Source: Dehalococcoidia bacterium
Lineage (GTDB): Bacteria; Chloroflexota; Dehalococcoidia; GIF9; UBA5629
Assembly: GCA_041653995.1 (NCBI GenBank)
Contig: JBAZEK010000001.1
Coordinates: forward strand, 1,030,613-1,094,612
Length of the DNA stretch: 64,000 nucleotides
Direction: 5' to 3'
Program-made: the position numbers and the translations under genes
The notes under the pieces: model-generated
What the model was told of the DNA's origin: nothing
Databases searched by the model: none
Seen by the model: only the letters and a program-made list of their open reading frames with translations
Part shown: one piece after another, positions 12,791 through 45,612 of the stretch
How the letters are laid out: the number at the start of each line of letters is the position of its first letter
How positions within the stretch are numbered: position 1 is the first letter of the stretch

Positions 12791-12834
12791 TTCCAGTGGG
12801 CCTTTTCTCTCCCTGCATTGCCGGCGCTTATTAG

Positions 12835-12920
12835 TCATTGCGAGGAACGTAGTGACGAAGCAATCCTGTACGTGATTGCGTATACACAAGATTGCCACGC
12901 TTCGCTCGCAATGACGAGGA
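12835..12920. repeat. REP-like palindromic intergenic element, copy 1
   Basis: 'tcattgcgaggaacgtagtgacgaagcaatc...gattgccacgcttcgctcgcaatga'. Terminal inverted repeat cattgcgag/ctcgcaatg and inner gcaatc/gattgc. Translates as the FARNDE-type pseudo-ORF. Confidence 0.7.
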
Positions 12921-16873: not shown

Positions 16874-16886
16874 GCCGGCGCACGCG

Positions 16887-16972
16887 TCATTACGAGGAAC
16901 GCAGTGACGAAGCAATCTTGTGCCGTCATGCGCGTGAACAGGATTGCCGCGCCCTCCGGGCTCGCAATGACC
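16887..16972. repeat. REP-like palindromic intergenic element, copy 2
   Basis: 'tcattacgaggaacgcagtgacgaagcaatc...gattgccgcgccctccgggctcgcaatga'. The left half differs from copy 1 at only 2-3 positions. Lies between convergent genes. Confidence 0.7.
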
Positions 16973-30966: not shown

Positions 30967-31005
30967 CAATCATTATCTTTGGCTTTGCCGCTCCCTTTGA
31001 CGCTC

Positions 31006-31029
31006 GCCCGCCCGGTTGCGGGCCGTTTT
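31006..31029 (+). terminator. possible intrinsic terminator
   Basis: gcccgc-ccggtt-gcgggc followed by cgTTTTg. Confidence 0.35.
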
Positions 31030-31038
31030 GATCTGGGT

Positions 31039-31275
31039 TTACATGATGTAGGGCGTGCGGCAGCATTTAAGTGCAACACGATGAGAACATATGGTGGGCG
31101 ATACTGGATTTGAACCAGTGACCCCCTGTGTGTAAGACAGGTAAAAACCTTTAATTGACTGGAGCTTATTGATAATCTCTAGGGAAGCCTTACGTTGTCC
31201 TGAAAGAATCATGCTCAAATAGCTTTTACTGATACCTAATTCTTTGGCTAATTGACTCTGTGTTAACTTTTTCAT
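31039..31275 (-). CDS. HTH protein = putative N-terminal fragment of the split integrase (Int-N)
   Basis: ATG 31275 abuts the xis-like stop. HTH 'LTQSQLAKELGISKSYLSMILSG'. Residues 49-61 are encoded by the att/tRNA copy and the last 17 aa by host flank. Confidence 0.6.
   Translation of the reverse strand: MKKLTQSQLAKELGISKSYLSMILSGQRKASLEIINKLQSIKGFYLSYTQGVTGSNPVSPTICSHRVALKCCRTPYIM
31092..31142. repeat. att site (distal copy): 3' 51 nt of tRNA-Val(UAC) without the 5' half
   Basis: 'tggtgggcgatactggatttgaaccagtgaccccctgtgtgtaagacaggt' is identical to 43144-43194. Confidence 0.95.
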
Positions 31276-31530
31276 TTATTTCACCCGCCTTTTTATATCC
31301 TTTAAGCCTGCGTTTCCAATTATCGGTAAATATTGGTACGACTTCTTCTGTCTTCCTTTTGCACTAAAGTTCCCCTGTGGTTTTCTCACAAAATGACAGT
31401 CTACCTCATCAATAAGCCATCTCCGTCCAATGTAGAGTGCATTAATCCGTCCCTCTGACAAAAGCTTACGAACCCGTCTCTCAGATATACCAAGCCTTTC
31501 TGCTGCCTGTGGAACCGTAAGTAGTTTCAT
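31276..31530 (-). CDS. excisionase-family DNA-binding protein (Xis-like)
   Basis: 'LLTVPQAAERLGISERRVRKLLSEGRINALYIGRRWLI' is the typical excisionase/MerR-type HTH_17 pattern. Confidence 0.7.
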   Translation of the reverse strand: MKLLTVPQAAERLGISERRVRKLLSEGRINALYIGRRWLIDEVDCHFVRKPQGNFSAKGRQKKSYQYLPIIGNAGLKDIKRRVK

Positions 31531-31706
31531 TCAATTACCTTCTATCATTTTAATATTATACCGTTATCGGAATAATGTCAAGTATAATTACAAGCTAAAA
31601 TATCTTTTCTTTTTGCCGCATTTTTCCATAATACTCCGCAGAATTTTTTCAAATCGTATTTAAATTAAGTTTTAAAAGTTCAAGAATGAGGGTTTATAAT
31701 ATGCAT

Positions 31707-31817
31707 ATAAACTGGAAGCATATGGAAGGAAGCACGATAGAAAGTTAGAACGTAAGCAAGCGAGTAAGCAAGAAGGAAAGCAGGCGAGCAGGGAAGCTAT
31801 GTTGCTTTCCTTTTTTT
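31707..31817 (+). ncRNA. candidate ~110-nt purine-rich small RNA or leader ending in an intrinsic terminator
   Basis: TATAAT at 31695-31700. Five GGA motifs. 8-bp stem ggaaagca/tgctttcc (31775-82 / 31803-10) followed by T7. Confidence 0.3.
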
Positions 31818-31841
31818 AATTTTTTGATTCGGAGGTACGAA

Positions 31842-32057
31842 ATGACTGAAAACAAGGTCAAGGAAATTAGATTGAGCAAATGCATGAATCAGAGAGAACT
31901 GGCAGAGAGAGCTCATATCTGTCAAACAGCTATTTCAGACATTGAAAGGGGGGTAAGACTACCATGGAAAGCAGCGTCTGAAAAGCTTGCTATTGCATTG
32001 GGTGTCACAATCGAGGAATTATTCCCAAACAATCTTAGGGGAGGTAAAAATTGCTAA
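31842..32057 (+). CDS. Cro/CI-type XRE HTH regulator
   Basis: ATG 31842 after GGAGG. 'MNQRELAERAHICQTAISDIERGVRLP'. Divergent from xis-int. Confidence 0.75.
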   Translation: MTENKVKEIRLSKCMNQRELAERAHICQTAISDIERGVRLPWKAASEKLAIALGVTIEELFPNNLRGGKNC

Positions 32058-32398
32058 ACAAAAATAGAACGTCTTTAAAGCTGGGAAACAAGAAAGTAGG
32101 CTACTTTGAAGGTGATAAATTCATCAAACCCGTAATCGGCTCAAAGCATCTGCTGAAATTTCCTTACCAAGCTTGGGCAATTGATGCCAAAGTATTTGAC
32201 GATGAAATTAAACCTAACGCCAATTATTTTATTGTAAGAGATAGGGAGTCGGGGCTTGAATATAGTTGTACGGTAAAGGACTTCGACAATTTAAAGCGAA
32301 CCATTAACAGAGGGTATGGTAAGCAGTACAGTCTATCTCTAAAACATTGGAAAATAGCAGCTATGGAAGACGCTGAAGCTTCCAGTAACGCAACATAG
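32051..32398 (+). CDS. hypothetical protein
   Basis: 115-aa ORF with TTG start after GGAGG, overlapping the cro-like stop by 7 nt. No recognisable motifs. Confidence 0.5.
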   Translation: MLNKNRTSLKLGNKKVGYFEGDKFIKPVIGSKHLLKFPYQAWAIDAKVFDDEIKPNANYFIVRDRESGLEYSCTVKDFDNLKRTINRGYGKQYSLSLKHWKIAAMEDAEASSNAT

Positions 32399-32579
32399 AG
32401 TAGTGCAGCACCCGTTTTAGTAGTTGGAGGTGCTGTGTAAAAATGGTATTAGACAGAAGGAAAAGGCTGATGGAGGAGGGTATGACTCGCCATGATATTT
32501 CAGGAGCCTACTTATTTAATCAATTCAAGTGAGTTGTAATAGATGGTCATACCTATTCGATGGTCTTAAGGAGGAAAAT

Positions 32580-33026
32580 ATGATTCAGGGCATAGAAAAT
32601 TATATAAATTTAACAGATACCAAGAATGAATGGGCAAAATTTCTAAATGGCTTTGAATGGCATTGGTTCTTTACTCTCACATTTGATAAAAAGGTAAGTG
32701 ATGACTTGGCATACAAGCAATTCTTTAGGTGGAAGAATTGGATAAAGAGTTCAGTAGGACACAGAATTTTCTATCTAATTATTCCTGAGCGTCCCAAGTA
32801 TAAGGGAGATAATACTCATATTCATGGATTTCTTAATGGTGTTGAAAATGAGAAACCCTACATATGGAGAAGGAAATGGGAGGCAATGGCAGGCTTTTCT
32901 CGGATTCAACCCTATGATAGTTCAAGGGGTGCAAGCTATTATCTAGCGGATAAAATTGTATTTAAAGAAGAGGATATTTATCATAGCAAAGACCTAAATA
33001 TGATAAAGATAAATACACTCAATTAA
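32580..33026 (+). CDS. HUH-superfamily rolling-circle replication initiator (Rep)-like protein
   Basis: ATG 32580 after AAGGAGG. Motif I 'FFTLTF', motif II 'THIHGFL' (HUH), motif III 'YYLADK'. Confidence 0.55.
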   Translation: MIQGIENYINLTDTKNEWAKFLNGFEWHWFFTLTFDKKVSDDLAYKQFFRWKNWIKSSVGHRIFYLIIPERPKYKGDNTHIHGFLNGVENEKPYIWRRKWEAMAGFSRIQPYDSSRGASYYLADKIVFKEEDIYHSKDLNMIKINTLN

Positions 33027-33117
33027 ATCCATTATATATATCAATATGATTATTACTACAAACATCAATATTTATTTCTTTTACTTTTACTTTTCCTTAT
33101 GCCCCTTTTTTATTTTT

Positions 33118-33172
33118 GCCCCAAATATGAATTAAATATAAATATCTACAATTAATTGCATAAAATTGGGGC
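33118..33172. other. hairpin (7-bp GC-rich stem, 41-nt AT-rich loop): candidate replication origin
   Basis: gccccaa (33118-24) pairs with ttggggc (33166-72). The loop holds 'taaatataaatatctacaa' (33133-51), which recurs at 34198-34216. Confidence 0.35.
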
Positions 33173-33231
33173 ATAGGGAAAAAATCACATATAAAATTCA
33201 AATAGAAAGTCAGGAGGAATCAGTAAGTAAA

Positions 33232-33858
33232 ATGAGTACAATAATTTCAAAACCTACGACAATTCAAATTAGCATGCTTGGGACACATGCCTTTTGTGAA
33301 TATAGGATATATCTTGAGCTTGTTATGGGTTTTAAAGCACGAGGTACACCAGAAATGCTTGAAGGCACAAAAGCACACTCAAGGATAAATACGATGGCTT
33401 TCTTAACGAGAGATTCAAATATTAGCATTGAGGATGCGTTGCTCCAAGCAGAGTCAGACGGAAGAGAAATAACAAAAAGGAACGTACGGGTAACAGGTAA
33501 GATACTACGTGGGAATATCGATGAAATTCACATTGGGCCAAAAGAAATTACGATTATAGATGATAAAAAATGGGCAGAGCATTATCCATCATATAAAAAT
33601 CAAGTCTTTGGCTATTGCCTTGCGTTTAAAGAACAATACAACCCAAAGCAGCCGATATACGGTGCCATAAAGAATTATCAGTCTGGAAAGGAAGTCTGGA
33701 AAAAACAATTTTCAGTTTTGGAAGAGGAATATATAAACGGCATTGTTCAAAGAATACTGGGGATAATTCGTGAGGATATCACTCCAAAACCCATTGGTGT
33801 TAGAGAAGTATGCTGGCAATGTGGATTTAAAAATTACTGCAATGTAAGGACACGATAG
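33232..33858 (+). CDS. Cas4-like PD-(D/E)XK nuclease with 4-Cys cluster
   Basis: N-terminal Cys 'HAFCEYRIYLE', 'IDEIH', 'IIDDKK', 'NQVFGY' (QxxxY), C-terminal 'CWQCGFKNYC' (C-x2-C-x5-C). AGGAGG upstream of ATG 33232. Confidence 0.6.
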   Translation: MSTIISKPTTIQISMLGTHAFCEYRIYLELVMGFKARGTPEMLEGTKAHSRINTMAFLTRDSNISIEDALLQAESDGREITKRNVRVTGKILRGNIDEIHIGPKEITIIDDKKWAEHYPSYKNQVFGYCLAFKEQYNPKQPIYGAIKNYQSGKEVWKKQFSVLEEEYINGIVQRILGIIREDITPKPIGVREVCWQCGFKNYCNVRTR

Positions 33859-33895
33859 CAAAATGGTGGAAAAAGGAAAAAGAAGAAACTAACTA

Positions 33896-34159
33896 CTATA
33901 CTGCCTTGAAACCCACAATAAAGTAATTTGATTTATCAAATATAAGTCTTATCTTGTGTTCTGAATTATCCTTGCCGGCCAGGGCAATTAAGAATGATAG
34001 CTTCTTTGGATTAGTAACTGTCTTAGAAATTGGACGATGGACAATAAAACCCTCAAGTTCAATCTTCACATATCTACAGCCAGTCTTCGGATATGGCAAA
34101 TCCTTCTCTTCCACAATATCTATATATTTGCATATGGCTGAATTTGTCCTTCTTGGCAT
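33896..34159 (-). CDS. hypothetical protein
   Basis: 87-aa ORF on the opposite strand, with purine-rich SD (AAGGGAAGAAAGGAA) upstream of the ATG. Confidence 0.4.
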   Translation of the reverse strand: MPRRTNSAICKYIDIVEEKDLPYPKTGCRYVKIELEGFIVHRPISKTVTNPKKLSFLIALAGKDNSEHKIRLIFDKSNYFIVGFKAV

Positions 34160-34503
34160 ATTTATTTCCTTTCTTCCCTTTTCCGCTAAATTTAAACTAA
34201 ATATAAATATCTACAAATTATTATATTAAATCCACAACCAAATTTGAATATGAATGCCACAGATAAATGGCGGAAAAGAAAAAGAGTCTTAGAGATATTA
34301 TTATTTTGTATTATTTTCTTTAATAGTCAGATAGCAAGTGTGGCTAAGGGCAATTTTACCTTTAAAAATATTGAATCTGGTTGTCATTTGTCTAGTGCTT
34401 TAAAAATAGAAAACCTTCACGTGTGAGAAATGCCAGTAGCACGTGTATTAGAAGCGGCATTTTAAATAAAATCTTAGCCCAAAGTCATAGCAAATATAGA
34501 TTG

Positions 34504-34532
34504 TTGCATGCGTCCTTTTAATACGATAGAAT
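34504..34532 (+). promoter_or_regulatory. promoter TTGCAT-17 nt-TAGAAT (copy A)
   Basis: Both hexamers and the spacing are conserved in the duplicated unit at 40413-40441. Confidence 0.5.
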
Positions 34533-34558
34533 ACGGTCAATGTAGTGAGGCTGGGGAG

Positions 34559-36502
34559 ATGAAATATTTACTTGCTTGTTTCATAGCACTATTCGTTATA
34601 TCAGCCTGTGCATCTCAAGTCCATGTTGGTGACCAAGCTCCAAACTTCACACTGACAGATATAAATGGTAAACGTATTAGTCTGCAAGATTTTCGTGGCA
34701 AGCAGGTTGTTCTTTATCTTTGGTTTTTATATTGTCCTGAATGTACAGAAGACCTTGCTGAGATTCAAGAGTTGAATAATAATAGTGACGAAAGAGTCAT
34801 TAAGTTCCTAACCATTAACCCAGAAAATTCATCAAAAGACGTTGCGGATTTTTTCACTAAAAATGGATATAGTTTCCCAGTTTTGTTTGATTTAGATGGA
34901 AGTATTTACAAGCAATATAATTTACGACCTCGGTCTGCACCCTACACAATAATTATTGCTCCTGATGGAAAGATTAACAATATTACAGTGGGGAATCTTC
35001 ATTATCAAGGTGGTTTAAAACGGTTAATTGGAGATAACGTAACATCCTTCAGTCCAAGTGCACAAACTCAAAAGACTCCAATAATTATCGTACCCAGTTT
35101 ACAATCTCATGGTGTCGATGAACTTGCTTATGTATCTAGCGAAACGAACACGAACTCTATATATGTCGTGAATGCAAACGGGGAATATATTGCTAACTCA
35201 TCTGGAAAAATGGATGCATTATACCATGTTAGTTGGTCGCCAAACGGAGATAAGATTATTTTTGAAGTGGTTAAAGATATCAATATAGACCAGAGAAATA
35301 TGACCCTTATTTCTTCGTCTGATATTTATTCTCTTGATATTAAAGACCATGAAGAGCGTAGACTTACTTCAAATTATCCGTATAGCAATTGTTCTCCCAC
35401 ATGGATTGAAGACGATAAAATCGTATTTTATTCAACAAGGGGAAGTTCGTATGGCAGTTTTTTACAAAATATATACATCATGAACGCAGACGGAAGTAAT
35501 CAGATAAATTTAACTAATTGTGCAGAGAATGTACCTATGGTATTAGAACCAATATTATCGCCTGACCACTTGTCTGCAGCATATATTACGGGTAAGTTAT
35601 TCGATGAAGATATATATGTGATAAACCTAGTGAATGGAAATAAATTTGAAATAGGCCATAATCCAACATTTGCACCCTGGACTTGGTGGTCTCCAAACAG
35701 TAAACAGATAGCGTATATATCTGCCTCTCTAAACGGGGGGCCTGAATCATTTTATCTCTACGATGTCGAAAAACAGAAACCGATAAAATACTATGATAGC
35801 CCTCAATCTTATTCTATTATGGAAATAGCATGGTCGCCAGACAGTAACAAAGTCGCTATTTTTGAAAAACCGCAGAGCTTGTATGTTTTAGATTGTCTGA
35901 GTTCCAAGTTTACAAAACTTGATGGGATATGTGACTGGGTAGTAGAGATGAAATGGATACCTAATAACCAACAAATAGCCATTATTGGTGACAGGTTTAC
36001 AAACAGAAACTTGTATGTAATTGATATTGGTGAGCAGAGTAAGCATAAAATCAATCCAGAGGGAACGGCAGTCGAGTCGTATCGATGGTCAACTGATAAT
36101 ACAAGAATCATTTATTGCTTAGATGATGGATATCTTTACACAACTTTCCTACCCAACTTAAATACCATAAAACTAATGCAACTTAATAAAAATACGATAA
36201 AAGGGTTAGCTTTGTCACCAGACGGTTTATTAATCGCTGTTGCTCTGAGTGACGATACTCTAACTGTAATTTCATTAAACAATAACAAGGTGTGCTTGTT
36301 AACTAATGATTATTACAATATTGGAGCAATTTCTTGGTCGCAAAACAGTAACATACTTGCATTTGAATACGGAACTTTATGGGATAGTCCGTTTGTATGC
36401 AGTAACATTCAAATCATCAATTTCGAAAACGAGGAACAGTTCATTAAATTAGATAAACCAATCTCAGGACGCTCTCCAATTTGGGCGAGAAAGGAAAAAT
36501 AA
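34559..36502 (+). CDS. lipoprotein: TlpA/ResA-like thioredoxin domain (CPEC) fused to TolB-like beta-propeller
   Basis: Signal 'MKYLLACFIALFVISAC'. 'VGDQAPNFTLTDINGKRISLQDFRGKQVVLYLWFLYCPEC'. Then >=8 PD40-like blades ('SWSPNGDKIIFE', 'WWSPNSKQIAYIS', 'AWSPDSNKVAIF', 'ALSPDGLLIAVA'). Confidence 0.75.
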   Translation: MKYLLACFIALFVISACASQVHVGDQAPNFTLTDINGKRISLQDFRGKQVVLYLWFLYCPECTEDLAEIQELNNNSDERVIKFLTINPENSSKDVADFFTKNGYSFPVLFDLDGSIYKQYNLRPRSAPYTIIIAPDGKINNITVGNLHYQGGLKRLIGDNVTSFSPSAQTQKTPIIIVPSLQSHGVDELAYVSSETNTNSIYVVNANGEYIANSSGKMDALYHVSWSPNGDKIIFEVVKDINIDQRNMTLISSSDIYSLDIKDHEERRLTSNYPYSNCSPTWIEDDKIVFYSTRGSSYGSFLQNIYIMNADGSNQINLTNCAENVPMVLEPILSPDHLSAAYITGKLFDEDIYVINLVNGNKFEIGHNPTFAPWTWWSPNSKQIAYISASLNGGPESFYLYDVEKQKPIKYYDSPQSYSIMEIAWSPDSNKVAIFEKPQSLYVLDCLSSKFTKLDGICDWVVEMKWIPNNQQIAIIGDRFTNRNLYVIDIGEQSKHKINPEGTAVESYRWSTDNTRIIYCLDDGYLYTTFLPNLNTIKLMQLNKNTIKGLALSPDGLLIAVALSDDTLTVISLNNNKVCLLTNDYYNIGAISWSQNSNILAFEYGTLWDSPFVCSNIQIINFENEEQFIKLDKPISGRSPIWARKEK

Positions 36503-36527
36503 GAAATTTCAAAAATGGAGACTGAAT

Positions 36528-36824
36528 ATGACTGGCGAATTGGGAAATTTTGTTATCGTCATGGGATTACCCTGTTTAGGAGCGCTGTTAATAGCTTTTT
36601 GTTCATTACCAACCGATAAATGGACAATAAAACACACTTTTATGTTGGTGGGAACTTCACTAATTTTTATTAGCTTTATTTTGCAAGCATATCAGATTAT
36701 TGATAAATACCCTGATAAAAATGAATATATATTTGGATGGTGGATTGTCGGTTTAGCTACCGTTATCATGGCTATAATAGGGCAAATTATTAGAATCAGA
36801 TACGGTAAAAGTTGGTTCCAATAG
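36528..36824 (+). CDS. small membrane protein (3 TM)
   Basis: 98-aa hydrophobic ORF, 26 nt after the upstream stop. Confidence 0.5.
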   Translation: MTGELGNFVIVMGLPCLGALLIAFCSLPTDKWTIKHTFMLVGTSLIFISFILQAYQIIDKYPDKNEYIFGWWIVGLATVIMAIIGQIIRIRYGKSWFQ

Positions 36825-36920
36825 GATAATAAAATAGTGGGAAAGGAAAGAGAAGGAAATTTAATTAGCTATCTATATTTAAGATAAGAGTGACTTATAG
36901 AACTTCATTGAGGTTGGGAG

Positions 36921-37451
36921 ATGCAACAACAGTATCAATGCCCTAATTGTAGGTATCCAGTTGCTTATGGGAATAATTTCTGTGGACATTGTAGACAACA
37001 ACTAATCTGGCAACAATTAATGCCACCTTCACCACCAGTACACCATCAGCAAACACCACAAGGCATTATTGGGAAATCACACGAGCAAAACACTTCTGGA
37101 CAAGGTGGTCAATCAATAATACCCGATGAAAAGCGTATTAAACTTCCAAAACTCAATATTCGTTTCGACTTTGAGTTGTTTCAAGCAATTGAGGACAATG
37201 ACCGTAAACTGGCTGAACAGCTCAAAGCAAAATATGGGGATGATGTTTATAATTCCAATTTTTATAACCTGCTTAGTATCGAAGACGCTAACTCAGTAGA
37301 CTCACTTCATCTTAAACTAGTATCAGTTGAAAAAATGAATTTCAATGATATTTTATGCGAAAGTATCAAAATAGAGACTGAAAAAGTACGCAAAAGGATA
37401 GAGGAGCTTGAGAATATAAAAAATTTACGCAACGGGATTGAGGAAGTGTAA
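36921..37451 (+). CDS. zinc-ribbon protein with Pro-rich linker and helical C-terminus
   Basis: 'MQQQYQCPNCRYPVAYGNNFCGHCRQQLIW'. Head is homologous to the host ORFs at 57880(-) and 58107(+). No TM helix. Confidence 0.65.
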   Translation: MQQQYQCPNCRYPVAYGNNFCGHCRQQLIWQQLMPPSPPVHHQQTPQGIIGKSHEQNTSGQGGQSIIPDEKRIKLPKLNIRFDFELFQAIEDNDRKLAEQLKAKYGDDVYNSNFYNLLSIEDANSVDSLHLKLVSVEKMNFNDILCESIKIETEKVRKRIEELENIKNLRNGIEEV

Positions 37452-37511
37452 GGAACTGACTAAACCCCTGAAACTGGCAGCTCGAGTAAGAAAAATGGCG
37501 GGAAAGAAAAT

Positions 37512-39368
37512 TTGATTTATATGTTATGGGATGATACGTATCGTAAAGATGCAGCGGAGTATGAAATCTATCTGCGTATGCATCATAAAGAAAAAAACGA
37601 TTACGAGAAGCTTTTATCTAATCTTGAACGTGAGTGGTCAGAAAAATCAGTTAAAGAAGAAAACTACATATCGCTTAAAAAGGAATACACAGCGAAACTA
37701 CAGGAAACAAAGAAGTACATTTCAAAGCTGAAATTCCAGATTACAGCACTCATTAAAAAATGTAATAAAGACATAGATAAAATCGATAGCCAAATTGAAC
37801 AAATTAAATTGCGGCACAAAGTTGGTGAATATTCAGAGGAGAAACTCAAAGAACTATTATCACCATCTGAAACAGAAAGAAGGCAATTTGAATCCTTAAT
37901 AATCGAACTGAAACGCATACATGGCTTGAAATATATACCTAAACCAACTACCGATGATGTTGTATCAGAAACAGAACCGAGTCAGCCTAGAAGGTCTCCT
38001 ATCCCAACGTCATCTACTTCTATTTCAACAGCTGAAGAGCAAGCCCCCGAAATATCAGCACCAATGAGTTTTGAAGAACCGCCTCCTATTTTGGTACCTG
38101 CTGTATTTAAAAAGTCTTCACCTGTAAGAGTAAAGAAGAGTCTGTGGATTATGGCTTCGATTACTATGTTTGTAATATTAATTCTCTGTTTTGTTATTTG
38201 GAATATAGAAGTGCATAAAAAGGTAATCCCTCAGATTGGAGACCAAGCTCCAAACTTCTCTCTCCCAGATATGAATGGTAAAACGGTTAACCTTCAGGAC
38301 TTTCACGGAAAGGGTGTTGTTCTTTACCTTTGGGACACATCATGTCCTTACTGCAAAAATGACCTTAGCTGGATAAATGAATTAAATGGCTGCACCTATG
38401 ACGAAGCAATAATATTTTTAACTATTAATATCTCAGATTCACGTGGAACAGCTATTAAATATTTTGAGGAAAATGGATATAGTATTCCCGTTTTAAATGA
38501 TATGCGTGGGACGGTTATTAAGCAGTATGTAAAGTACACCTTAGGCCATACGTATCCAGATACTATTCTTATTGGTTCAAATGGCCAGATTCGTAATGTA
38601 AAAGTCGGGCCCTTCCAAAGCAAGACTGAATTAAAAACATTTATAGAATCAGGTTTAACCCCCCGTTGGGATAATACTCCTCCACAAATTTATGATATTA
38701 ATCTTTCTAAGGCCTCTATTTTGAGTTGGAAAACGGATGAGGAAACACATAGTAATATACAAGGGTTTCGTAATAGTGTCGGAGGTGCTGGAGTCACTCT
38801 TGGTGAAAATTGGACAAGATATCATAGCGTAAATGAAACAGTTTGCACTAATGGCTACTATGACCAAATTCAAATCAACTCGTATGACCGCTGCGGTAAT
38901 TCTGCTTCAAAAGTTTTTACACTGCCCAACTGCATAAATTTAGGTTGTAGAGCTCCTGATTTCACAGCAACTTCAACTAATAATCAGGATATAACGCTGT
39001 CCGCAGTACCTAGCAAAATGACTCTACTTCACTTCTGGCTACTCGGATGTGGTGCATGTGAAAAGGAACTTCCATTAATCCAAAAACTATATTATGAGCG
39101 TCCTAGAGAAGAACTTGAGATATTGGCTGTGAATGTTAGAGGTGACATATACAGCATAAATGACTTCGTTACTGCAAATGGTTATAGATTAATTATTTTA
39201 CTAGATACAGAAGGCATAATAGATGCCGCCTATCATAATCCAAGGTTCCCCACAACCTTTTTATTGGATTGCAATAAGGTAATTATTAACAAGCATGACG
39301 GTGCCTTTCAAAATTATGAAGAAATCGTTGATTTTGTAGGTCAGTATCCAAAACTTCCTGGTAAATAG
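37512..39368 (+). CDS. coiled-coil / TM / thioredoxin (CPYC) / Fn3-like / thioredoxin (CGAC) protein
   Basis: 618 aa. TM 'LWIMASITMFVILILCFVIW'. 'IGDQAPNFSLPDMNGKTVNLQDFHGKGVVLYLWDTSCPYC', 'ILSWKTDEETHS', 'CRAPDFTATS...LLHFWLLGCGAC'. Start uncertain (TTG 37512, ATG 37521, or frameshifted ATG 37495). Confidence 0.7.
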   Translation: MIYMLWDDTYRKDAAEYEIYLRMHHKEKNDYEKLLSNLEREWSEKSVKEENYISLKKEYTAKLQETKKYISKLKFQITALIKKCNKDIDKIDSQIEQIKLRHKVGEYSEEKLKELLSPSETERRQFESLIIELKRIHGLKYIPKPTTDDVVSETEPSQPRRSPIPTSSTSISTAEEQAPEISAPMSFEEPPPILVPAVFKKSSPVRVKKSLWIMASITMFVILILCFVIWNIEVHKKVIPQIGDQAPNFSLPDMNGKTVNLQDFHGKGVVLYLWDTSCPYCKNDLSWINELNGCTYDEAIIFLTINISDSRGTAIKYFEENGYSIPVLNDMRGTVIKQYVKYTLGHTYPDTILIGSNGQIRNVKVGPFQSKTELKTFIESGLTPRWDNTPPQIYDINLSKASILSWKTDEETHSNIQGFRNSVGGAGVTLGENWTRYHSVNETVCTNGYYDQIQINSYDRCGNSASKVFTLPNCINLGCRAPDFTATSTNNQDITLSAVPSKMTLLHFWLLGCGACEKELPLIQKLYYERPREELEILAVNVRGDIYSINDFVTANGYRLIILLDTEGIIDAAYHNPRFPTTFLLDCNKVIINKHDGAFQNYEEIVDFVGQYPKLPGK

Positions 39369-39441
39369 ATAATTTCTTGATATTAAGAAATCGAGGTGTA
39401 CTGGTCTGAACCCCTGAAACTGGACAGCTTGAGTAAGAAAA

Positions 39442-39951
39442 ATGGCGGAAAAAGAAATGCAACAGGAGGAGCATCCCCTAAATATGGGGAAGCTACTTGT
39501 GAATTTCCAATCACTTGAGATAGCTCTCCGTCTATTTCTTTATAATGATGAAATTGCCTCTAGAGTTTCATCTCCTCAGGCGGTAAACCTAAATGCTATG
39601 AATGCGGGGGATATAGTAGCTGAAAATGCGTTCACAAACTATGATAGTCTAAGTCAACTCATTGATAAATATAATAACCATCCCAACATCATATCGACAG
39701 GTCTAACCATTGATAAGACTTTAGTGGACATACGTGATGCAATAGCTCATGGAAGAGTCGCTGGAGTCACTCCTTTGCTTGTGCCTCCTTTAAAACTAAT
39801 GAAGTTTGATAAACCAAAGAACAAAAGTGTGAAAGTAACATTTAGCGTTTTATTGACAAGGGAATGGTTCATTCTAGAGATGGCTAAGGTTCAAGATGCA
39901 GTTTTTAAAGTCTTTCAAGCTATCCAAATAATACAGAGTGCTAAGACATAA
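39442..39951 (+). CDS. hypothetical protein with RxxxxH (HEPN-like) motif
   Basis: 169 aa, predicted helical. 'VDIRDAIAHGRV' matches the Rx4-6H HEPN signature. Motif-level evidence only. Confidence 0.45.
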   Translation: MAEKEMQQEEHPLNMGKLLVNFQSLEIALRLFLYNDEIASRVSSPQAVNLNAMNAGDIVAENAFTNYDSLSQLIDKYNNHPNIISTGLTIDKTLVDIRDAIAHGRVAGVTPLLVPPLKLMKFDKPKNKSVKVTFSVLLTREWFILEMAKVQDAVFKVFQAIQIIQSAKT

Positions 39952-40412
39952 GTGGTGCCCTCTGAAATCGCTCTGAGGGGCTGAAATCAGGGTGTTGCAT
40001 ATTGAACATGACGGATTCCACCTGTCATTACTATTCCAGCTTAATTAGAGCCTTTAAAGTATTAAACAGTAAAGGTAATAACTCTACTTCCTTTCCCTTA
40101 AGCCCCTTTATTATTTCTTCGCCTAAGTTTCCGTTCAAGTGAATTATGTCGCTTTTAAGACCAACAAACGCTGGTACACCATAAACACGTTTACGTTCAA
40201 GCCAATTATGTCGTTTTGCATATATTATTTCCAGCTTAAATTAACTACAGAAAAATGGGGCAAAAAGAGAAAAAGGGGAATTATATATCAATTTATTGTC
40301 AATAATCTTTGAAATACTATTACTTCATCTGAGAGAGATGCCAGCAGCTAAGTGTAACGGCATTGAATTTTAAATAACTTCTCAGCCCAAAGTGGTAACG
40401 CATATAGGTCTA

Positions 40413-40441
40413 TTGCATAAGTATTGTTCATATAATAGAAT
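40413..40441 (+). promoter_or_regulatory. promoter TTGCAT-17 nt-TAGAAT (copy B)
   Basis: Same hexamers and spacing as 34504-34532. Followed by an identical 5' UTR and signal-peptide coding sequence. Confidence 0.5.
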
Positions 40442-40467
40442 ACGGTCAATGTAGTGAGGCTGGGGAG

Positions 40468-41880
40468 ATGAAATATTTACTTGCTTGTTTCATAGCACTA
40501 TTCGTTATATCAGCCTGCACACCAAATAACTCAATAAACAACGTTGAGACATTCCCAAAAATCGGAGATAAGATACCGAATATCTCATGGACTACTATCA
40601 ATGGCGAAAAGATTGATTTAAATCAGTTTAAAGGCAGTTGGGTGCTACTATGCTATTGGTGCTCTTGCCCTGTACATAGGAATGACATACTGACTATTCA
40701 TAATGTTTATGATTCATTATATGATAAGAATCTCGATGTCATTGTAATTAATGATACTTATGCTCAGATAGAATTAGAGGCATTTGGAAAACAAAACAAT
40801 GTACCGTTTTATTTAATTGAAGATAATCAAAAAACAATTGATAAACTTGTACCATTTGGCAACAGGCCAATATATCTCTTAATTGATGGGAGTGGGGATT
40901 TACATGCTATCGAAATAGGTACATTTCGCTCTGGCGAAAATAGCGTTAACAATGTAATCAATTTCCTTGATGATGTGATTAAGGTAAGAATCGATAATAT
41001 TACAGTCACTAATATTACTTCAAATAGGGCAACTGTGAGATGGAAAACAGATAAGGCAGTACCGTGTTGGTTGGAAATTCACCCCCAAGGTGACCCAATC
41101 GGAAAGTGCATCGGCAAGACAAATCCAAATACATTTCATGAATTGATATTAAACTGTAATCCCAACACAGCTTACACTTTTAACGTAGCTGCTAGTGGAT
41201 TAGATAATTCTTTAATTAACGATGCAAGCAATCGTAGTAGTGAATTTTCATTTCAAACATTACCAAATTGGGTTACTTCTTTATATGAGGTTGACTCTAC
41301 TAAACCAAAAATATCGAATGTTAAAGTTTCTATAATTACAGATACGAGTGCAGAGTTATATTGGGAAACTGATGTGGAAGCTCAAGTCACCGCTACAATC
41401 TGTAAATATATATCCAGTACTGATGCGCCCTTAAACTCCCAGAAAATTGATTTTATAGAAGACATATATTTTACAAAGAAACATAGCTTTACAATTAGCT
41501 CTCTTGAGCCAAGACGATTATATGACGTTGGTTTAAATGCCAAAGATAGAATGGGAAGGGTTGCCGATTACAGTGTCGAATTTTTAACACAACCTTCAAA
41601 TTATACTCACGGAGCGAAGATATCCAATATATCTTTATATGACATCACGGACAGGAGTGCTAAATTAAAATGGTCAACTGACAAGTCAGTATGGAGTTCA
41701 GCCTGCTATAAATATGAGTGCTCTTCTGGGGACATCAACACTGAGCATTCATATACACTATCCTATGGTCTGGAACCCGATACAGAATACTGGGTGCAAA
41801 TTCTAGCACATGGGGAATCGGTATCTGATGTATTCAACTTCAGAACATTAAAGACAACAGATAAGGTAGATATGAAATGA
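40468..41880 (+). CDS. lipoprotein: degenerate thioredoxin-like domain (WCSCP) plus three Fn3-like domains
   Basis: Identical signal 'MKYLLACFIALFVISAC'. 'IGDKIPNISWTTINGEKIDLNQFKGSWVLLCYWCSCP'. Fn3-like starts 'ITSNRATVRWKTDK', 'ITDTSAELYWETDV', 'ITDRSAKLKWSTDK'. Confidence 0.7.
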   Translation: MKYLLACFIALFVISACTPNNSINNVETFPKIGDKIPNISWTTINGEKIDLNQFKGSWVLLCYWCSCPVHRNDILTIHNVYDSLYDKNLDVIVINDTYAQIELEAFGKQNNVPFYLIEDNQKTIDKLVPFGNRPIYLLIDGSGDLHAIEIGTFRSGENSVNNVINFLDDVIKVRIDNITVTNITSNRATVRWKTDKAVPCWLEIHPQGDPIGKCIGKTNPNTFHELILNCNPNTAYTFNVAASGLDNSLINDASNRSSEFSFQTLPNWVTSLYEVDSTKPKISNVKVSIITDTSAELYWETDVEAQVTATICKYISSTDAPLNSQKIDFIEDIYFTKKHSFTISSLEPRRLYDVGLNAKDRMGRVADYSVEFLTQPSNYTHGAKISNISLYDITDRSAKLKWSTDKSVWSSACYKYECSSGDINTEHSYTLSYGLEPDTEYWVQILAHGESVSDVFNFRTLKTTDKVDMK

Positions 41881-41907
41881 AAGAAAATCAAAAGGGAGGT
41901 AAAGAAG

Positions 41908-42084
41908 ATGGTAGCAAATAAGAAGAAGTATTATGCAGGGGAATCAGCTAAAGTCTCTGGCAAATACAACGAATGCAGATTGGGCACAGGCAAAACAGGA
42001 GTAACAGCAAATGTCAAGAAGGGGGATACACTCCCACCACATAAAATAGGAGCTCATTGGGAGTTATCAAGAAAATCTAAATAA
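41908..42084 (+). CDS. small YjzC-like protein (58 aa)
   Basis: Not in the track (<60 aa). AAGGGAGG lies 8 nt upstream. 'GESAKVSGKYNE...VKKGDTLPPHKIGAHWEL' resembles the YjzC family pattern (from memory). Confidence 0.5.
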   Translation: MVANKKKYYAGESAKVSGKYNECRLGTGKTGVTANVKKGDTLPPHKIGAHWELSRKSK

Positions 42085-42316
42085 TATAGACATATTTAAG
42101 AAAGTGGTGACTTATAAAACTTCATGCTGTCCTGAAAGCTGAATGACCGAGTATATCTTTGCACCATAATAAAGTTCAGCCAAGGCACCGTTAAAATGTA
42201 CTACAGAATTGTTCTAAAGGGCCAAAATGGGGTATATAATATAGGGCATGACAGATTCTTCCTGCCTGAGCTTTTCAAGCTTAATTATTGAACAAATAAC
42301 TATGAAATCCTGATTG

Positions 42317-43081
42317 CTAACGAGGTAACTGATTTGAGCCGTTCACATCTTTGTAGACTTGAAGAGCATCCTCAAAGGATAAAGATTTTGAATACCTTTC
42401 AACCATAGAAATGCTTTCCCAACCGCCTAGATTTTGCACAATACGAGTGGATAACCCAGACTTAATATTGTGAATACAAAACCCTCTTCTATAGCTATGG
42501 GCGTTGGACTTAATGCCAGTTTCTTTAGACAATCGTTTAAGCATAGTTTTAATGCCAGCTCTTGATATTTCAAAACTATCATGCTCATCAAACCACTTTC
42601 CGATAACACCATTACCAGCTAAAGCCTTACGATACTTGTTACCCTTGCCCAGAATGGTTACTGTACCTTCACCCCAGTCAAAGTCTTTAGCGTGCACATT
42701 AGCACATTCACTCAGCCTTACTCCTGAGTACCATAAGAAACTAATTAATGCTCTATCACGTTCACAATGACAATGATTTATCAGAACTTCTAATTGTTCT
42801 TTTGATACCGCAGGCAATAGCTTCTTTTGAATTTTTGGGCTAGGAACTTTGTCAATAACCTTGTCGTGAATATAGCTATTGCTGTATAGCCATGAAATGA
42901 GAGTTTTGAGAGCTTGATAGAATCTTGCTTTGCCATTATGACAGGTAAGTGATTTTAGATAAGCATTAACTCCATCTGGACTTAGGGGATAACCAATAAA
43001 ATGAGTTAAAGTATATTCGTAAAATTCAATAGTTCGCTTACTACAACCATCGGGGCGAGAAGAAATAAACTTCTCCAACAA
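42317..43081 (-). CDS. tyrosine recombinase, C-terminal part of split integrase (Int-C)
   Basis: Catalytic residues in 'GVRLSE' (R), 'HSYRRGF' (HxxR) and 'MVERY' (Y). No ATG or SD (track start is TTG) and first Met codon is at residue 180. The frame stays open upstream through attR. Confidence 0.85.
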   Translation of the reverse strand: MLEKFISSRPDGCSKRTIEFYEYTLTHFIGYPLSPDGVNAYLKSLTCHNGKARFYQALKTLISWLYSNSYIHDKVIDKVPSPKIQKKLLPAVSKEQLEVLINHCHCERDRALISFLWYSGVRLSECANVHAKDFDWGEGTVTILGKGNKYRKALAGNGVIGKWFDEHDSFEISRAGIKTMLKRLSKETGIKSNAHSYRRGFCIHNIKSGLSTRIVQNLGGWESISMVERYSKSLSFEDALQVYKDVNGSNQLPR

Positions 43082-43143
43082 TTCTTTTGTGAACTTTTTG
43101 TAGCTAACTTGTGAATATTGTGAAATTGAGCTGTAGTTTTCTT

Positions 43144-43219
43144 TGGTGGGCGATACTGGATTTGAACCAGTGACCCCCTGTGTGTAAGACAGGTGCTCTA
43201 ACCGCTGAGCTAATCGCCC
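43144..43219 (-). tRNA. tRNA-Val (anticodon UAC), CCA encoded; integration target
   Basis: GGGCGATTAGCTCAGCGGTTAGAGCACCTGTCTTACACACAGGGGGTCACTGGTTCAAATCCAGTATCGCCCACCA. Anticodon loop CTTACAC. The 3' 51 nt form attR. Confidence 0.9.
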
Positions 43220-43226
43220 TGGGGAG

Positions 43227-43302
43227 TGGCACGCCTGGTGGGGCTTGAACCCACGGCCTCAGCCTCCGCAGGGCTGCGCTCTATCCACTGAGCTACAGGC
43301 GC
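43227..43302 (-). tRNA. tRNA-Arg (anticodon GCG), CCA encoded
   Basis: GCGCCTGTAGCTCAGTGGATAGAGCGCAGCCCTGCGGAGGCTGAGGCCGTGGGTTCAAGCCCCACCAGGCGTGCCA. Anticodon loop CTGCGGA. G1:U72 pair. Confidence 0.75.
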
Positions 43303-43308
43303 ATAAAA

Positions 43309-43397
43309 TGGTGCCGAAGGTGGGAGTTGAACCCACACATCCGTTACGGATACTACGCCCTGAACGTAGCGCGTCTGCCATTCCGCCACTTCGGCCC
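43309..43397 (-). tRNA. tRNA-Leu (anticodon CAG), long variable arm, CCA encoded
   Basis: GGGCCGAAGTGGCGGAATGGCAGACGCGCTACGTTCAGGGCGTAGTATCCGTAACGGATGTGTGGGTTCAACTCCCACCTTCGGCACCA. Confidence 0.9.
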
Positions 43398-43470
43398 TGG
43401 GCAGCACAGGATTTGAACCTGTGACCCCTTGCGTGTGAAGCAAGTGCTCTAACCGCTGAGCTAGCCGCCC
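43398..43470 (-). tRNA. tRNA-Val (anticodon CAC), CCA not encoded
   Basis: GGGCGGCTAGCTCAGCGGTTAGAGCACTTGCTTCACACGCAAGGGGTCACAGGTTCAAATCCTGTGCTGCCCA. Its discriminator base directly abuts the 5' end of tRNA-Leu. Confidence 0.9.
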
Positions 43471-43605
43471 TCTAACGCTATATTTTATTCTTTAACAAGG
43501 TTTAAAAGCAAGGCGAACCGCCCCGTACAATCATAGTTCATCAGGATTTATAAGCCCGCGCTGTGGACATCCCTCTACTCCAATGCATATAATTCAACTA
43601 CACCC

Positions 43606-44586: not shown

Positions 44587-45612
44587 ATGCAGCAATGGAT
44601 AAGATGCACCAGATGCGGCGCCAATAATGCTCCCGGACAGAAATTCTGTAACGCATGCGGTACACCCCTGCCGACCGTCTGCCCCAATTGCGGAACCCCG
44701 GCAGGTCCCGGCAGCACTTTCTGCGCCAGGTGCGGCATGACATTCAGCGGTATGCCCCAGCAGACCGGATATTACCCTCCGCAGCAGCCGGGATATCCTC
44801 AGCAACCTGGCTATCCGCAGCAACCGGCATATCCGCAACAGCCGGGCTATCCTCAGCAACCGGGCTATCCTCAGCAACCGGGCTATCCGCAACAGCCGGG
44901 ATACCCGCAACAGCCTGGATATCCGCAGCAGCCCCCCGGCTACCCGCCTCAACAGACCGGCTATTATCCTCCGCAGCAGCCGGGTTATCCTCCACAGCCG
45001 GGATATCCGCAGCAACCGCCCGGTTATCCGCCGCAGCCGGGATATCCGCAACAGCCCGGCTATCCCCAGCAACCGGGATATCCGCCGGGCTATCCTCCGC
45101 AGCAGCCGCCACGCGGAGCGTATCCGCCGGGCGCAAGGCCACCCCAGCAAGGCGGCGGCAAAGGCATGCTCATATTGCTGCTGGTTGTTCTGATTGCCGG
45201 CCTGGCAGGCTTCGGTTACTGGGCTTACAGCCAGGGCTACCTCAAGGGCATACTTAACTTCGGCAGCGATAACACCACCACCTCCACAGGGAAACAGAAG
45301 GACACTGTGCCGCCCACCATCAGCGGCGTAGAAGTTAGCGCCAAGGCCATAAACGAAGTCGGCATTATCTGGAAGACGGACAAGCCATCCAGTTCTCAGG
45401 TGGAATGGGGTCCCAAGGGATCGTTCGGCAACAAGACGACACTACAGGATGACCCCGTGAGCGGTACCAGCATCGGTGTCACCGATCACGGGGTTATCGT
45501 CAAGGGATTAACGGCAAATACTGAATACCAGTACCGTGTGTTATCACATACCGACGGCAACGTTGACGCCGTATCCGCCACCAATACTTTCACGACACCT
45601 TCGGCAGATTAA
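44587..45612 (+). CDS. double zinc-ribbon / PGYPQQ-repeat / TM / Fn3-like domain protein
   Basis: '[19 protein letters not shown]...[19 protein letters not shown]', 132-aa Pro/Gln/Tyr repeat, TM '[21 protein letters not shown]', and C-terminal '[16 protein letters not shown]...TEYQYRV'. Confidence 0.8.
44755..45150. repeat. 18-nt tandem repeat (P-G-Y-P-Q-Q) coding region
   Basis: About 20 degenerate copies of 'ccgggctatcctcagcaa'. This generates the long spurious ORFs in other frames and on the other strand. Confidence 0.9.

Follow-up and report, generated by a model that had tools for sequence, protein, structure and literature searches.

Two genes on a small integrative island of a Dehalococcoidia genome began with closely related units of about 185 nt, termed heads here, the last 83 nt of which were identical in the two copies. 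The unit is most likely the standard 5' expression and export module of its family. The 83-nt identity within the island can be ascribed, with the same confidence, to a recent gene conversion between paralogs; on a longer timescale, one allele of the module would have moved between lineages. The family would comprise extracytoplasmic lipoproteins with a thioredoxin fold that are encoded on low-GC islands of Dehalococcoidia/Chloroflexota genomes. The proposed module consists of a promoter-like core with a conserved spacer, a leader of 26-44 nt containing GAGG, and a type II signal peptide of 17-21 codons that ends in the lipobox I-S-A-C.

The island (Table 1) lies within the window, the whole 64,000-nt stretch of DNA that was analysed, and is inserted at a tRNA-Val gene of a Dehalococcoidia metagenome-assembled genome between the two copies of a perfect 51-nt direct repeat (31092-31142 = 43144-43194). 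Like other tRNA-targeting genomic islands, it has an integrase beside an intact tRNA, a repeat of the tRNA 3' end at its far end, an excisionase-like gene and a deviant GC content. However, it is very small (12.1 kb) and carries Rep(ORF2/G2P)-like and Cas4-like nuclease genes with no structural or conjugation genes. The island also holds other repeated short 5' modules.

Table 1. Features of the island and of its two heads (positions in the window)
Feature	Position	Strand	Evidence
Integrative island, 12.1 kb, 35% GC, carrying both heads	31092-43194		GC profile against the ~54% GC host; 51-nt direct repeat; integrase, excisionase-like, HTH, Rep-like and Cas4-like genes
attL, a second copy of the 3'-terminal 51 nt of tRNA-Val(tac)	31092-31142	-	Repeat; partial Rfam tRNA match
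Head A	34425-34609	+	Upstream homologous block, promoter-like core, leader and 17-codon lipoprotein signal peptide; alignment with head B
Promoter-like core, head A	34504-34532	+	TTGCAT 34504-34509, 17-nt spacer, TAGAAT 34527-34532; precedes 11 independent family genes
Exact 83-mer of head A, probable tract of a recent gene conversion	34526-34608	+	Repeat comparison
Probable Shine-Dalgarno GAGG, 8 nt 5' of ATG	34547-34550 (copy B, 40456-40459)	+	Sequence; putative role
Gene A (P0013, winA), 647 aa	34559-36502	+	Lipoprotein signal peptide, A-type AhpC/TSA thioredoxin fold (CPEC), PD40-like beta-propeller; Pfam
Gene C, third paralog without a head	37512-39368	+	Coiled-coil, TM anchor, two AhpC/TSA domains; first thioredoxin domain 43% identical to that of A
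Head B	40333-40518	+	Upstream homologous block, promoter-like core 40413-40441, leader, 17-codon signal peptide; alignment with head A
Exact 83-mer of head B, probable tract of a recent gene conversion	40435-40517	+	Repeat comparison
Gene B (P0001, winB), 470 aa	40468-41880	+	Lipoprotein signal peptide, B-type AhpC/TSA-like fold (C-x-x-C-x-C-P-x-H), Fn3 repeats; Pfam
Tyrosine integrase adjoining attR	42317-43081	-	Pfam Phage_integrase 3.3e-21; PHROG integrase 1e-22
Intact tRNA-Val(tac) gene; attR is its 3'-terminal 51 nt (43144-43194)	43144-43219	-	ARAGORN; Rfam

The two heads are in direct orientation, 5.9 kb apart. The DNA from 34526 to 34608 was identical at 83 of 83 positions to that from 40435 to 40517, and the mismatches that close the run were G/A at its 5' end and T/C at its 3' end. 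These were the only two matches to the 83-mer in the window, even when 3 mismatches were allowed, and none was expected in shuffled sequence. The tract starts one nucleotide 5' of the -10 box and stops after the second base of the Cys codon in the lipobox, spanning TAGAAT (34527-34532 and 40436-40441), a 26-nt leader, 16 codons beginning with the ATG at 34559 (gene A) or 40468 (gene B), and 2 nt of Cys17, which is encoded by TGT in one copy and TGC in the other. The -10 block and ATATCAGCCTG, two motifs that almost all of the family has kept, adjoin the ends of the tract. On the 5' side, 34425-34525 and 40333-40434 were identical at 72 of 100 positions (z = 24 against shuffles), and similarity between the copies was undetectable further 5' of this block. 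On the 3' side, the similarity of the heads stopped at the lipobox Cys codon, beyond which the mature regions of A and B had ~47% DNA identity and 24-26% protein identity (first 150 residues). A run of 83 identical bases would occur by chance with a probability of about 1e-13 at 70% identity. The sequence-only reading had described an 83-nt identity covering the -10 box, the 5' UTR and the first 16 codons with two bases of the Cys codon, a diverged upstream region of ~100 nt, and a TTGCAT-17-TAGAAT core kept in both copies; all of this was borne out, the core being located at 34504-34532 and 40413-40441.

Promoters of the sigma-70 type have -35 and -10 hexamers near TTGACA and TATAAT, separated by a spacer of 16-18 nt. 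TTGCAT-17-TAGAAT, which agrees with this consensus at 8 of 12 positions, is predicted from its conservation and sequence to act as a promoter. The score was under the threshold of the generic scan, so the site was unlisted there, and that scan gave no enrichment of promoter-like sites in the AT-rich island. The pattern TTG[C/T]AT-N16-18-TA[G/A/T]AAT was present at a fixed distance 5' of 11 independent related genes from other metagenomes, non-thioredoxin passengers included, and two further modules (those of L005 and of P0005 in L017) had kept only the part from the -10 box to the ATG. The invariant positions in alignment A4 were T13, T14, G15, A17 and T18 together with A35, T36, A37, A39, A40 and T41, and the promoter spacer was also conserved. 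The R1 sequence model had 13 matches in 174 kb of sequence (E 5e-20 to 3e-5), each directly 5' of a gene; it matched head A at 34498-34561 with 54 bits and head B at 40402-40470 with 59 bits.

Within the leader, GAGG appears likelier to be the Shine-Dalgarno sequence than the GGGGAG that abuts the ATG. The GAG of this element, inside TGAGG, was invariant across the 10-module alignment. An in-frame ATG at 34508, the start used by the ORF list, was present in copy A only. A search of Rfam over 31000-43500 (E <= 1) returned only tRNAs and weak matches overlapping them, with no leader or riboswitch family. The folding energy of the leader and signal-peptide RNA was -18.7 kcal/mol, the shuffle mean being -19.6 (z = 0.29). 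A pairing of AGGCTG in the leader with CAGCCT at the lipobox was not supported, as this RNA had no excess structure and folded no better than shuffles.

The lipobox profile PROSITE PS51257 calls for a Lys or Arg among residues 1-7, a hydrophobic core free of charged residues, and [LVI][ASTVI][GAS]C with the Cys at positions 15-35. The signal peptide of A and B, MKYLLACFIALFVISAC, has K2, no D, E, R or K in residues 7-12, and I14-S15-A16-C17, in keeping with this rule, and the same layout was found in all the short and long heads. Both proteins are thus predicted to be exported and processed as lipoproteins.

Judged from their sequences, A and B are deep paralogs that share an N-terminal thioredoxin fold of the AhpC/TSA type (~26% identity), followed by a beta-propeller in A and three Fn3 domains in B. 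Only AhpC-TSA, Redoxin, Fn3 and beta-propeller families were matched in Pfam by the two proteins, the AhpC-TSA and Redoxin matches at 1e-12 to 1e-38. The two had been described earlier as different cargo genes, which holds for their mature parts, a beta-propeller as against 3 Fn3; they are not unrelated, since the thioredoxin folds of the AhpC/TSA type with which they start are homologous. In the B-type proteins, a conserved C-Y-W-C-x-C-P-x-H cluster replaces the CxxC. Gene B has eleven homologs (P0002-P0012, 34-56% identity), and a scan of genome contigs with the B-family alignment returned the P0004 locus only, plus two unrelated Cycloclasticus redoxins. For gene A, a full-length ortholog was not found, and the thioredoxin part alone matched P0014-P0018 at 47-63%. 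The relationship of A to gene C extends to the DNA, where 34626-34777 and 38236-38387 form a repeat with 70% identity.

About 10 independent heads in all were available for comparison, and these represented two alleles, a short one, MKYLLACFIALFVISAC, and a long one, MG[NS]K..YLL... A search of homologous elements for the head in front of other passengers, a check proposed by the sequence-only reading, located the short allele 5' of four different passengers (A, B, P0010 and P0015) in three or more elements. The signal-peptide DNA of these four was 94-98% identical, as compared with 67-75% against the long heads. Moreover, the short allele was joined to both A-type and B-type thioredoxin passengers, the nearest relatives of which carry the homologous long allele. 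The mature domains formed two groups, one with A, P0015 and P0017 and the other with B, P0010, P0006, P0004, P0002 and P0008, with 20-32% identity between groups. In neighbour-joining trees of the heads, the bootstrap value was 100% for the short/long split and 0% for the A/B split, whereas in trees of the mature domains it was 100% for the A/B split and 0% for the short/long split. The 110 nt 5' of the -35 box grouped by element and not by passenger; the score was 37 for A with B and 36-42 for L002 with two L017 modules, against a null of 8.4 +/- 1.4. In L017, the promoter and leader were also found 5' of non-thioredoxin passengers, among them a small ORF and the genes of a TM protein and of a TPR lipoprotein.

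When the short head was sought as an exact pattern, viral contigs (three scans) and genome contigs gave nothing, and metagenome contigs gave only the L003 contig that was already known. A protein search with a concatenate of the four head peptides gave 42 word-sharing candidates, none of them at E <= 10. Derivation of the short head from the long one by loss of an upstream ATG was plausible under one alignment, but another alignment placed the gap differently and the derivation is not claimed.

The source is a metagenome-assembled genome and related short-read contigs break near the head, L005 starting 60 nt 5' of the ATG and L013-L015 starting 17-210 nt 5' of the -35 box, as might be expected if reads of one copy had been collapsed onto the other or had corrected it during polishing. 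Such an artefact is nevertheless extremely improbable. An independent ENA MEGAHIT contig, assembled with k = 141 (> 83), was identical across the island and contained both 83-mers, so the observation, which the sequence-only reading had made conditional on sound assembly, does not stem from the assembly. In addition, both head-passenger junctions recurred in other metagenomes, the short head with an A-type passenger in L005 and with a B-type passenger in L002 and L003. Finally, the 83-nt tract is shorter than a typical read and would consequently be phased by its unique flanks.

Several observations argue for gene conversion, 1) the tract is far more similar than its flanks, 2) the phylogenies of tract and flank conflict, and 3) other lineages show variation at these positions. 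Over the stretch between the -10 box and the ATG, identity was 75-84% among short heads from separate elements and 59-72% for short against long heads, as compared with 100% within the island. Because the short leaders are only 75-84% identical between elements, the perfect identity within the island would reflect recent gene conversion and not constraint.

The opposite case, in which strong purifying selection acts on every one of the 83 positions, for example to preserve a regulatory fold of the RNA, a protein or sRNA site or translation initiation, with no recent recombination, is very unlikely. It draws on the 94-98% identity of short-head signal-peptide DNA across elements, the only changes between elements being one non-synonymous substitution each in L002 and L005, with zero synonymous changes outside the Cys codon, the third base of which follows the passenger. 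Almost every head has also kept the -10 and lipobox blocks, and the promoter spacer was conserved as well. The lack of synonymous substitutions hints at a very recent spread of the short head or at extra constraint, although it is not significant at ~12 synonymous sites. However, the leaders of short heads differ by 16-25% between elements as against 0% in the island, and a leader so tolerant of change means that constraint cannot account for the 83-nt identity. The corresponding positions vary freely in long heads, neither Rfam nor the folding z-score gave any sign of a structured RNA, and selection would leave the conflict between head and passenger trees unexplained.

Under gene conversion, a recent non-reciprocal homologous recombination between the A and B copies, presumably of the RecA type, would have produced the 83-nt identity. 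The homogenising DNA could instead have come from a third element; the pattern scans of metagenome and genome contigs found no outgroup island with an unconverted copy. On a longer timescale, the short allele would have moved between the A-type and B-type lineages, and the promoter and leader onto other passengers. Since the thioredoxin fold is shared and the whole family has such a head, the event would be the replacement of a head allele among paralogs and not a fusion to foreign cargo. The earlier proposal of a head recombined onto passengers is supported by the heads at other loci and by the tree conflict, but only in this form, not as grafting onto unrelated cargo. A and B would then have common transcription signals, translation initiation and Sec/Lgt/Lsp targeting, and co-expression and anchoring at the cell surface would therefore be expected.

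There is little likelihood that the heads were moved by a dedicated cassette or site-specific system, either the island tyrosine recombinase acting at sites in the heads or template switching driven by Rep, in the manner of integrons or the Mycoplasma vsa, vsp and vpma loci. The island does encode a tyrosine recombinase and a Rep-like protein, the 3' junction fell at the same nucleotide of the Cys codon in 4 of 4 short-head genes, the island holds other repeated 5' modules, and the L017 promoter and leader stand before unrelated passengers. The shared 3' boundary is more simply explained because homology ends where the passengers start. Moreover, repeat analysis of the island revealed no inverted repeats or attC-like palindromes at the heads or gene boundaries, the integrase adjoins a classical tRNA att site with its 51-nt repeat, and the upstream similarity fades gradually (72%) with no sharp site. 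[quoted passage not shown] In contrast, the island copies are direct repeats, each with its own promoter core, there are no silent promoter-less copies and no inverted sites were found; the heads gave no sign of phase variation. Integrons, which have promoter-less cassettes with attC-like imperfect palindromes at their ends and an IntI next to attI, differ in these features and in that the island integrase adjoins a tRNA att site. Likewise, a DGR, an integron and an inversion switch were rejected, as no reverse transcriptase, attC-like palindromes or inverted sites were seen. Of the two routes named in the sequence-only reading, gene conversion or cassette shuffling, the evidence thus favors the former.

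The pattern is already known in Borrelia and Mycoplasma lipoprotein families and reveals no new mechanism. For the erp genes of the Borrelia burgdorferi cp32 prophages, evolutionary analyses concluded that recombination had placed one promoter, leader and localisation sequence in front of diverse external parts (PMC10016077); the name Elp, for OspE/F-like leader peptide, is used in PMC12242104. These genes, also described by their 'upstream homology box', resemble the present ones in being lipoprotein genes of mobile elements with a conserved leader peptide and conserved promoter DNA (promoter/operator DNA in Borrelia) in front of differing mature parts. The likeness is one of analogy and not of membership, with no sequence relationship, Pfam giving only the families named above. 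Furthermore, a monoderm Chloroflexota takes the place of a spirochaete as host, and a tRNA-integrated island of 12 kb that of a 32-kb plasmid prophage, and every lipoprotein passenger with the signal peptide keeps a thioredoxin fold just past the lipobox. The vpma genes of Mycoplasma agalactiae, vsp of M. bovis and vsa of M. pulmonis have conserved 5' untranslated and signal-peptide regions with a tyrosine recombinase gene nearby (PMC2268961), two features that they share with the island. As in the TlpA, ResA and AhpC-TSA lipoproteins, the thioredoxin fold is predicted to be exported behind a lipoprotein or TM anchor, and gene A keeps the CxxC (CPEC); the fusion to Fn3 or a PD40 beta-propeller and the occurrence as multi-paralog cargo on low-GC islands set the present family apart.

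The island provides a clear sequence-level case of a promoter, leader and signal peptide evolving in concert outside those pathogens, on a mobile element of an uncultured Dehalococcoidia, and it flags a recurrent low-GC family of predicted exported thioredoxin-fold lipoproteins in Chloroflexota. A bolder proposal, to which only a slight chance is given, is that the head is a portable capture-and-display module of low-GC Chloroflexota islands, with the -10/spacer and lipobox blocks serving as recombination anchors, perhaps aided by the island. If so, thioredoxin folds, Fn3 domains, beta-propellers, TPR proteins and others would have been placed repeatedly under one co-regulated promoter and lipid anchor, a built-in means of diversifying the cell surface in a monoderm environmental bacterium. 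The conserved promoter-like and leader motif, in a phylum with poorly known expression signals, could help to recognise co-regulated cargo when islands are annotated and could serve in the design of tags for expression and export. A 20-nt motif, AGAAAAATGGCGGAAAAAGA, was named beside the conserved spacer and -10 block as a candidate site for the two HTH proteins of the island.

The DNA at the 5' ends of genes A and B, two lipoprotein genes of the window with different mature proteins (passengers), was identical at 83 of 83 positions when both regions were aligned. As the sequence-only reading had described, this tract took in TAGAAT, the leader (26 nt) and the first 16 signal-peptide codons with 2 nt of the next. 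The 83-mer had just these two matches in the window at ≤3 mismatches and none in 100 shuffles. A G/A mismatch limits the run on the 5' side; on the 3' side it stops at the last base of the Cys17 codon (TGT vs TGC), past which the DNA similarity was gone. The preceding 100 nt were 72/100 identical (z = 24 vs shuffles), and no similarity further upstream was detected by alignment. Despite this divergence TTGCAT-17-TAGAAT was present in both copies, as also claimed; it agreed with the sigma-70 consensus at only 8 of 12 positions and was absent from the generic promoter-scan list.

An assembly artefact, which the same reading had named as the finding that would overturn it, was ruled out. An independent ENA MEGAHIT contig of the same region (L001, k = 141) was the same as the window across the island, held both 83-mers, and differed from it only over the contig's initial 25 nt and at a host-gene PGYPQQ repeat of variable length. 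Moreover, the junction of this type of promoter and signal peptide segment (the head) with an A-type passenger was seen again in L005, and that with a B-type passenger in L002/L003, all from other samples. The window and L001 begin to diverge at the PGYPQQ-coding repeat, which is probably length-polymorphic or difficult to assemble. On the attL side of the island L001 stops ~95 nt beyond the att repeat, and short-read contigs of related loci (L005, L013, L014, L015) often end within 17-210 nt of a head -35 box, consistent with the head and island being repeated or variable in those communities.

The heads sit in a 35%-GC stretch of a 54%-GC genome, a Dehalococcoidia MAG according to the source names. 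The stretch is flanked by a perfect 51-nt direct repeat corresponding to the 3' portion of tRNA-Val(tac). A tyrosine integrase adjoins the intact tRNA-Val(tac), and at the opposite end lie two HTH_3 regulators together with excisionase-like HTH_17, Rep(ORF2/G2P)-like and Cas4/PD-(D/E)XK-like genes. The stretch is a 12.1-kb integrative island in tRNA-Val(tac), with no structural or conjugation genes among its genes.

Features of the window and of related loci (window coordinates unless a contig is named)
Feature	Position	Strand	Description
Island	31092-43194		attL 31092-31142; attR 43144-43194
83-nt tract, gene A	34526-34608		
83-nt tract, gene B	40435-40517		
Gene A (P0013)	34559-36502	+	cargo; lipoprotein, AhpC/TSA thioredoxin fold with CPEC, then PD40-like beta-propeller
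Gene B (P0001)	40468-41880	+	cargo; lipoprotein, AhpC/TSA-like fold, then Fn3 repeats
Gene C	37512-39368	+	cargo; coiled coil, TM anchor, two AhpC/TSA domains
Small TM protein			cargo
Zinc-ribbon protein			cargo
169-aa protein			cargo; no assigned function
AGAAAAATGGCGGAAAAAGA motif	33857-33876, 34261-34280, 37489-37508, 39436-39455, 40249-40268	+	in or near intergenic DNA
AGAAAAATGGCGGAAAAAGA motif	L017:2783-2799		further occurrence
ATGGCGG module	37460-37511		precedes gene C
ATGGCGG module	39406-39458		precedes 169-aa ORF
Intergenic direct repeat	33097-33166, 34162-34231		74% identical
Intergenic direct repeat	36875-36908, 42092-42125		85% identical
Intergenic direct repeat	39990-40047, 42230-42287		71% identical
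tRNA cluster	43144-43470	-	right end of island; Val(tac)-Arg(gcg)-Leu(cag)-Val(cac)
PGYPQQ-coding repeat	44754-45075		host gene; tandem 18-nt units
67-nt host repeat	12834-12900, 16886-16952		78% identical
FHA/ABC protein	L006:429-2855; L017:11517-12736		also on P0016 contig

The passengers A and B are paralogs. Both matched AhpC-TSA (Pfam); their identity is 32% across residues 1-148, signal peptide counted, and about 26% (24-26%, varying with the alignment) across the first 150 residues of the mature proteins; the thioredoxin domain of A is nearer to that of gene C (43%). For B, 11 homologs with 34-56% identity were found, and in this lineage (gene B and P0002-P0012) a near-invariant C62-Y-W-C65-x-C67-P-x-H70 cluster replaces CxxC, which may bind a metal (Sco-like) instead of acting as a redox site. 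The protein search gave no full-length ortholog of A; its thioredoxin part alone matched P0014-P0018 (47-63%) and its propeller matched generic PD40 proteins (21-35%). Domain shuffling 3' of the thioredoxin fold is common across the family: P0012 combines a B-type thioredoxin with Fn3 and PD40, the thioredoxin domain is doubled in P0009 and P0011, and the propellers are separate genes in L004 and L006. In three related loci an FHA + ABC-ATPase + ABC2-membrane protein (~800 aa), absent from the window's island, adjoins the thioredoxin-lipoprotein cluster, possibly as a functional partner.

The head recurs as a module throughout the family. In loci of other metagenomes TTG[C/T]AT-N16-18-TA[G/A/T]AAT stood before 11 independent genes of the family; its spacer is partly conserved (AAGTnnnnTTAATGCGA). 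A sequence-only model spanning the -35 box to the ATG found 13 copies in 174 kb (window plus related loci), every one directly 5' of a gene and only two in the window; two of the 13, in L005 (cut by the contig end) and before P0005 in L017, matched from the -10 box to the ATG only. L017 carries the module before a B-type thioredoxin lipoprotein and a small ORF, before a TM protein whose C-terminal domain is unrelated, and, as core promoter only, before a TPR-repeat lipoprotein. All family members carry such a head, except that the island's third paralog, gene C, has none. Family loci are 35-40% GC patches in 47-59% GC hosts or wholly low-GC contigs, and several adjoin tRNA genes or integrases. 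The module would be expected to provide promoter activity, a ribosome-binding site and lipid modification.

Two head alleles were distinguished. The short allele (-10 box to ATG 32 nt, encoding MKYLLACFIALFVISAC) occurs on genes A and B, P0010 and P0015, and the long allele (36-44 nt, encoding MG[NS]K..Y[LF]L...) on P0017, P0006, P0004, P0002, P0008 and P0005. Signal-peptide DNA was 94-98% identical among short heads and 67-75% between short and long. The mature domains grouped otherwise, {A, P0015, P0017} at 57-73% and {B, P0010, P0006, P0004, P0002, P0008} at 43-72%, with 20-32% between groups. In neighbour-joining trees the short|long split had 100% bootstrap support and A|B 0% for heads, while for mature domains A|B had 100% and short|long 0%. 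The 110 nt 5' of the -35 box grouped by element (A with B; L002 with two L017 modules; L008, L011 and L013). This conflict, together with the upstream grouping, indicates from sequence comparison that heads were swapped between passenger lineages and duplicated within elements. The proposal of a head recombined onto different passengers was thus supported, and is refined to allele replacement (gene conversion) within one lipoprotein multigene family. No additional short heads appeared in scans of large viral, genome and metagenome contig collections, and a head-only protein search gave no matches.

Constraint on the leader does not explain the 83-nt identity, because short heads of separate elements differ by 16-25% from the -10 box to the ATG, yet those within the island at 0/32 positions, no Rfam family matches the head region, and the leader/signal-peptide RNA is no more stably folded than shuffled sequence (z = 0.29). 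The identity is instead best explained by a recent gene-conversion tract overlying an older common ancestry of the heads (72% upstream). Both tract ends coincide with blocks retained by almost every head of the family (the -10 block and the lipobox block ATATCAGCCTG), presumably the sole places where homology between diverged heads is unbroken. The third base of the Cys codon depends on the passenger type, the codon being TGT in every A-type gene and TGC in the two short-head B-type genes; the 3' limit of the tract is therefore simply the end of homology. No dedicated cassette machinery was seen in the island: both copies of the head face the same way and have separate promoter cores, there are no inverted repeats or attC-like palindromes at heads or gene ends, and the sole recombinase is the tRNA-att integrase.

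Head homogenisation is a known phenomenon, of which this is a fresh example in an unstudied lineage. Among known systems the Borrelia erp/UHB/Elp family, carried on cp32 prophages, is nearest: there, conserved promoter/operator DNA and leader peptides are recombined onto diverse mature parts (PMC10016077, PMC12242104). The Mycoplasma vpma/vsp genes likewise conserve the 5' UTR and signal peptide, but rely on a single promoter and on Xer1-type inversions around it to switch expression (PMC2268961), and neither of these was found in the island. The island genes have no sequence relationship to Borrelia erp or Mycoplasma vpma/vsp; they resemble both families in their mode of evolution without belonging to either.

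Other repeats were also observed. A 67-nt repeat in the host part of the window encloses a palindrome (GTCATTGCGAGGAACG.AGTGACGAAGCAATC) and looks like a small interspersed repeat element. The 20-nt motif AGAAAAATGGCGGAAAAAGA, which contains an ATG, has five copies at ≤3 mismatches, all of them in the island, where none are expected by chance; two lie 219-298 nt 5' of the gene A and gene B starts, ~65-145 nt before the head regions. An operator or stoperator-like site is one possibility for this motif, a recurrent gene-start module another. ATGGCGG is part of a further 5' module present in two copies, ~90% identical over ~50 nt. At gene C the frame of this module stops after six codons (MAGKKI*) and overlaps the TTG assigned as the start of C, which suggests a frameshifted or shifted start. 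With the intergenic direct repeats, the non-coding island DNA seems to be assembled from a few reused blocks.
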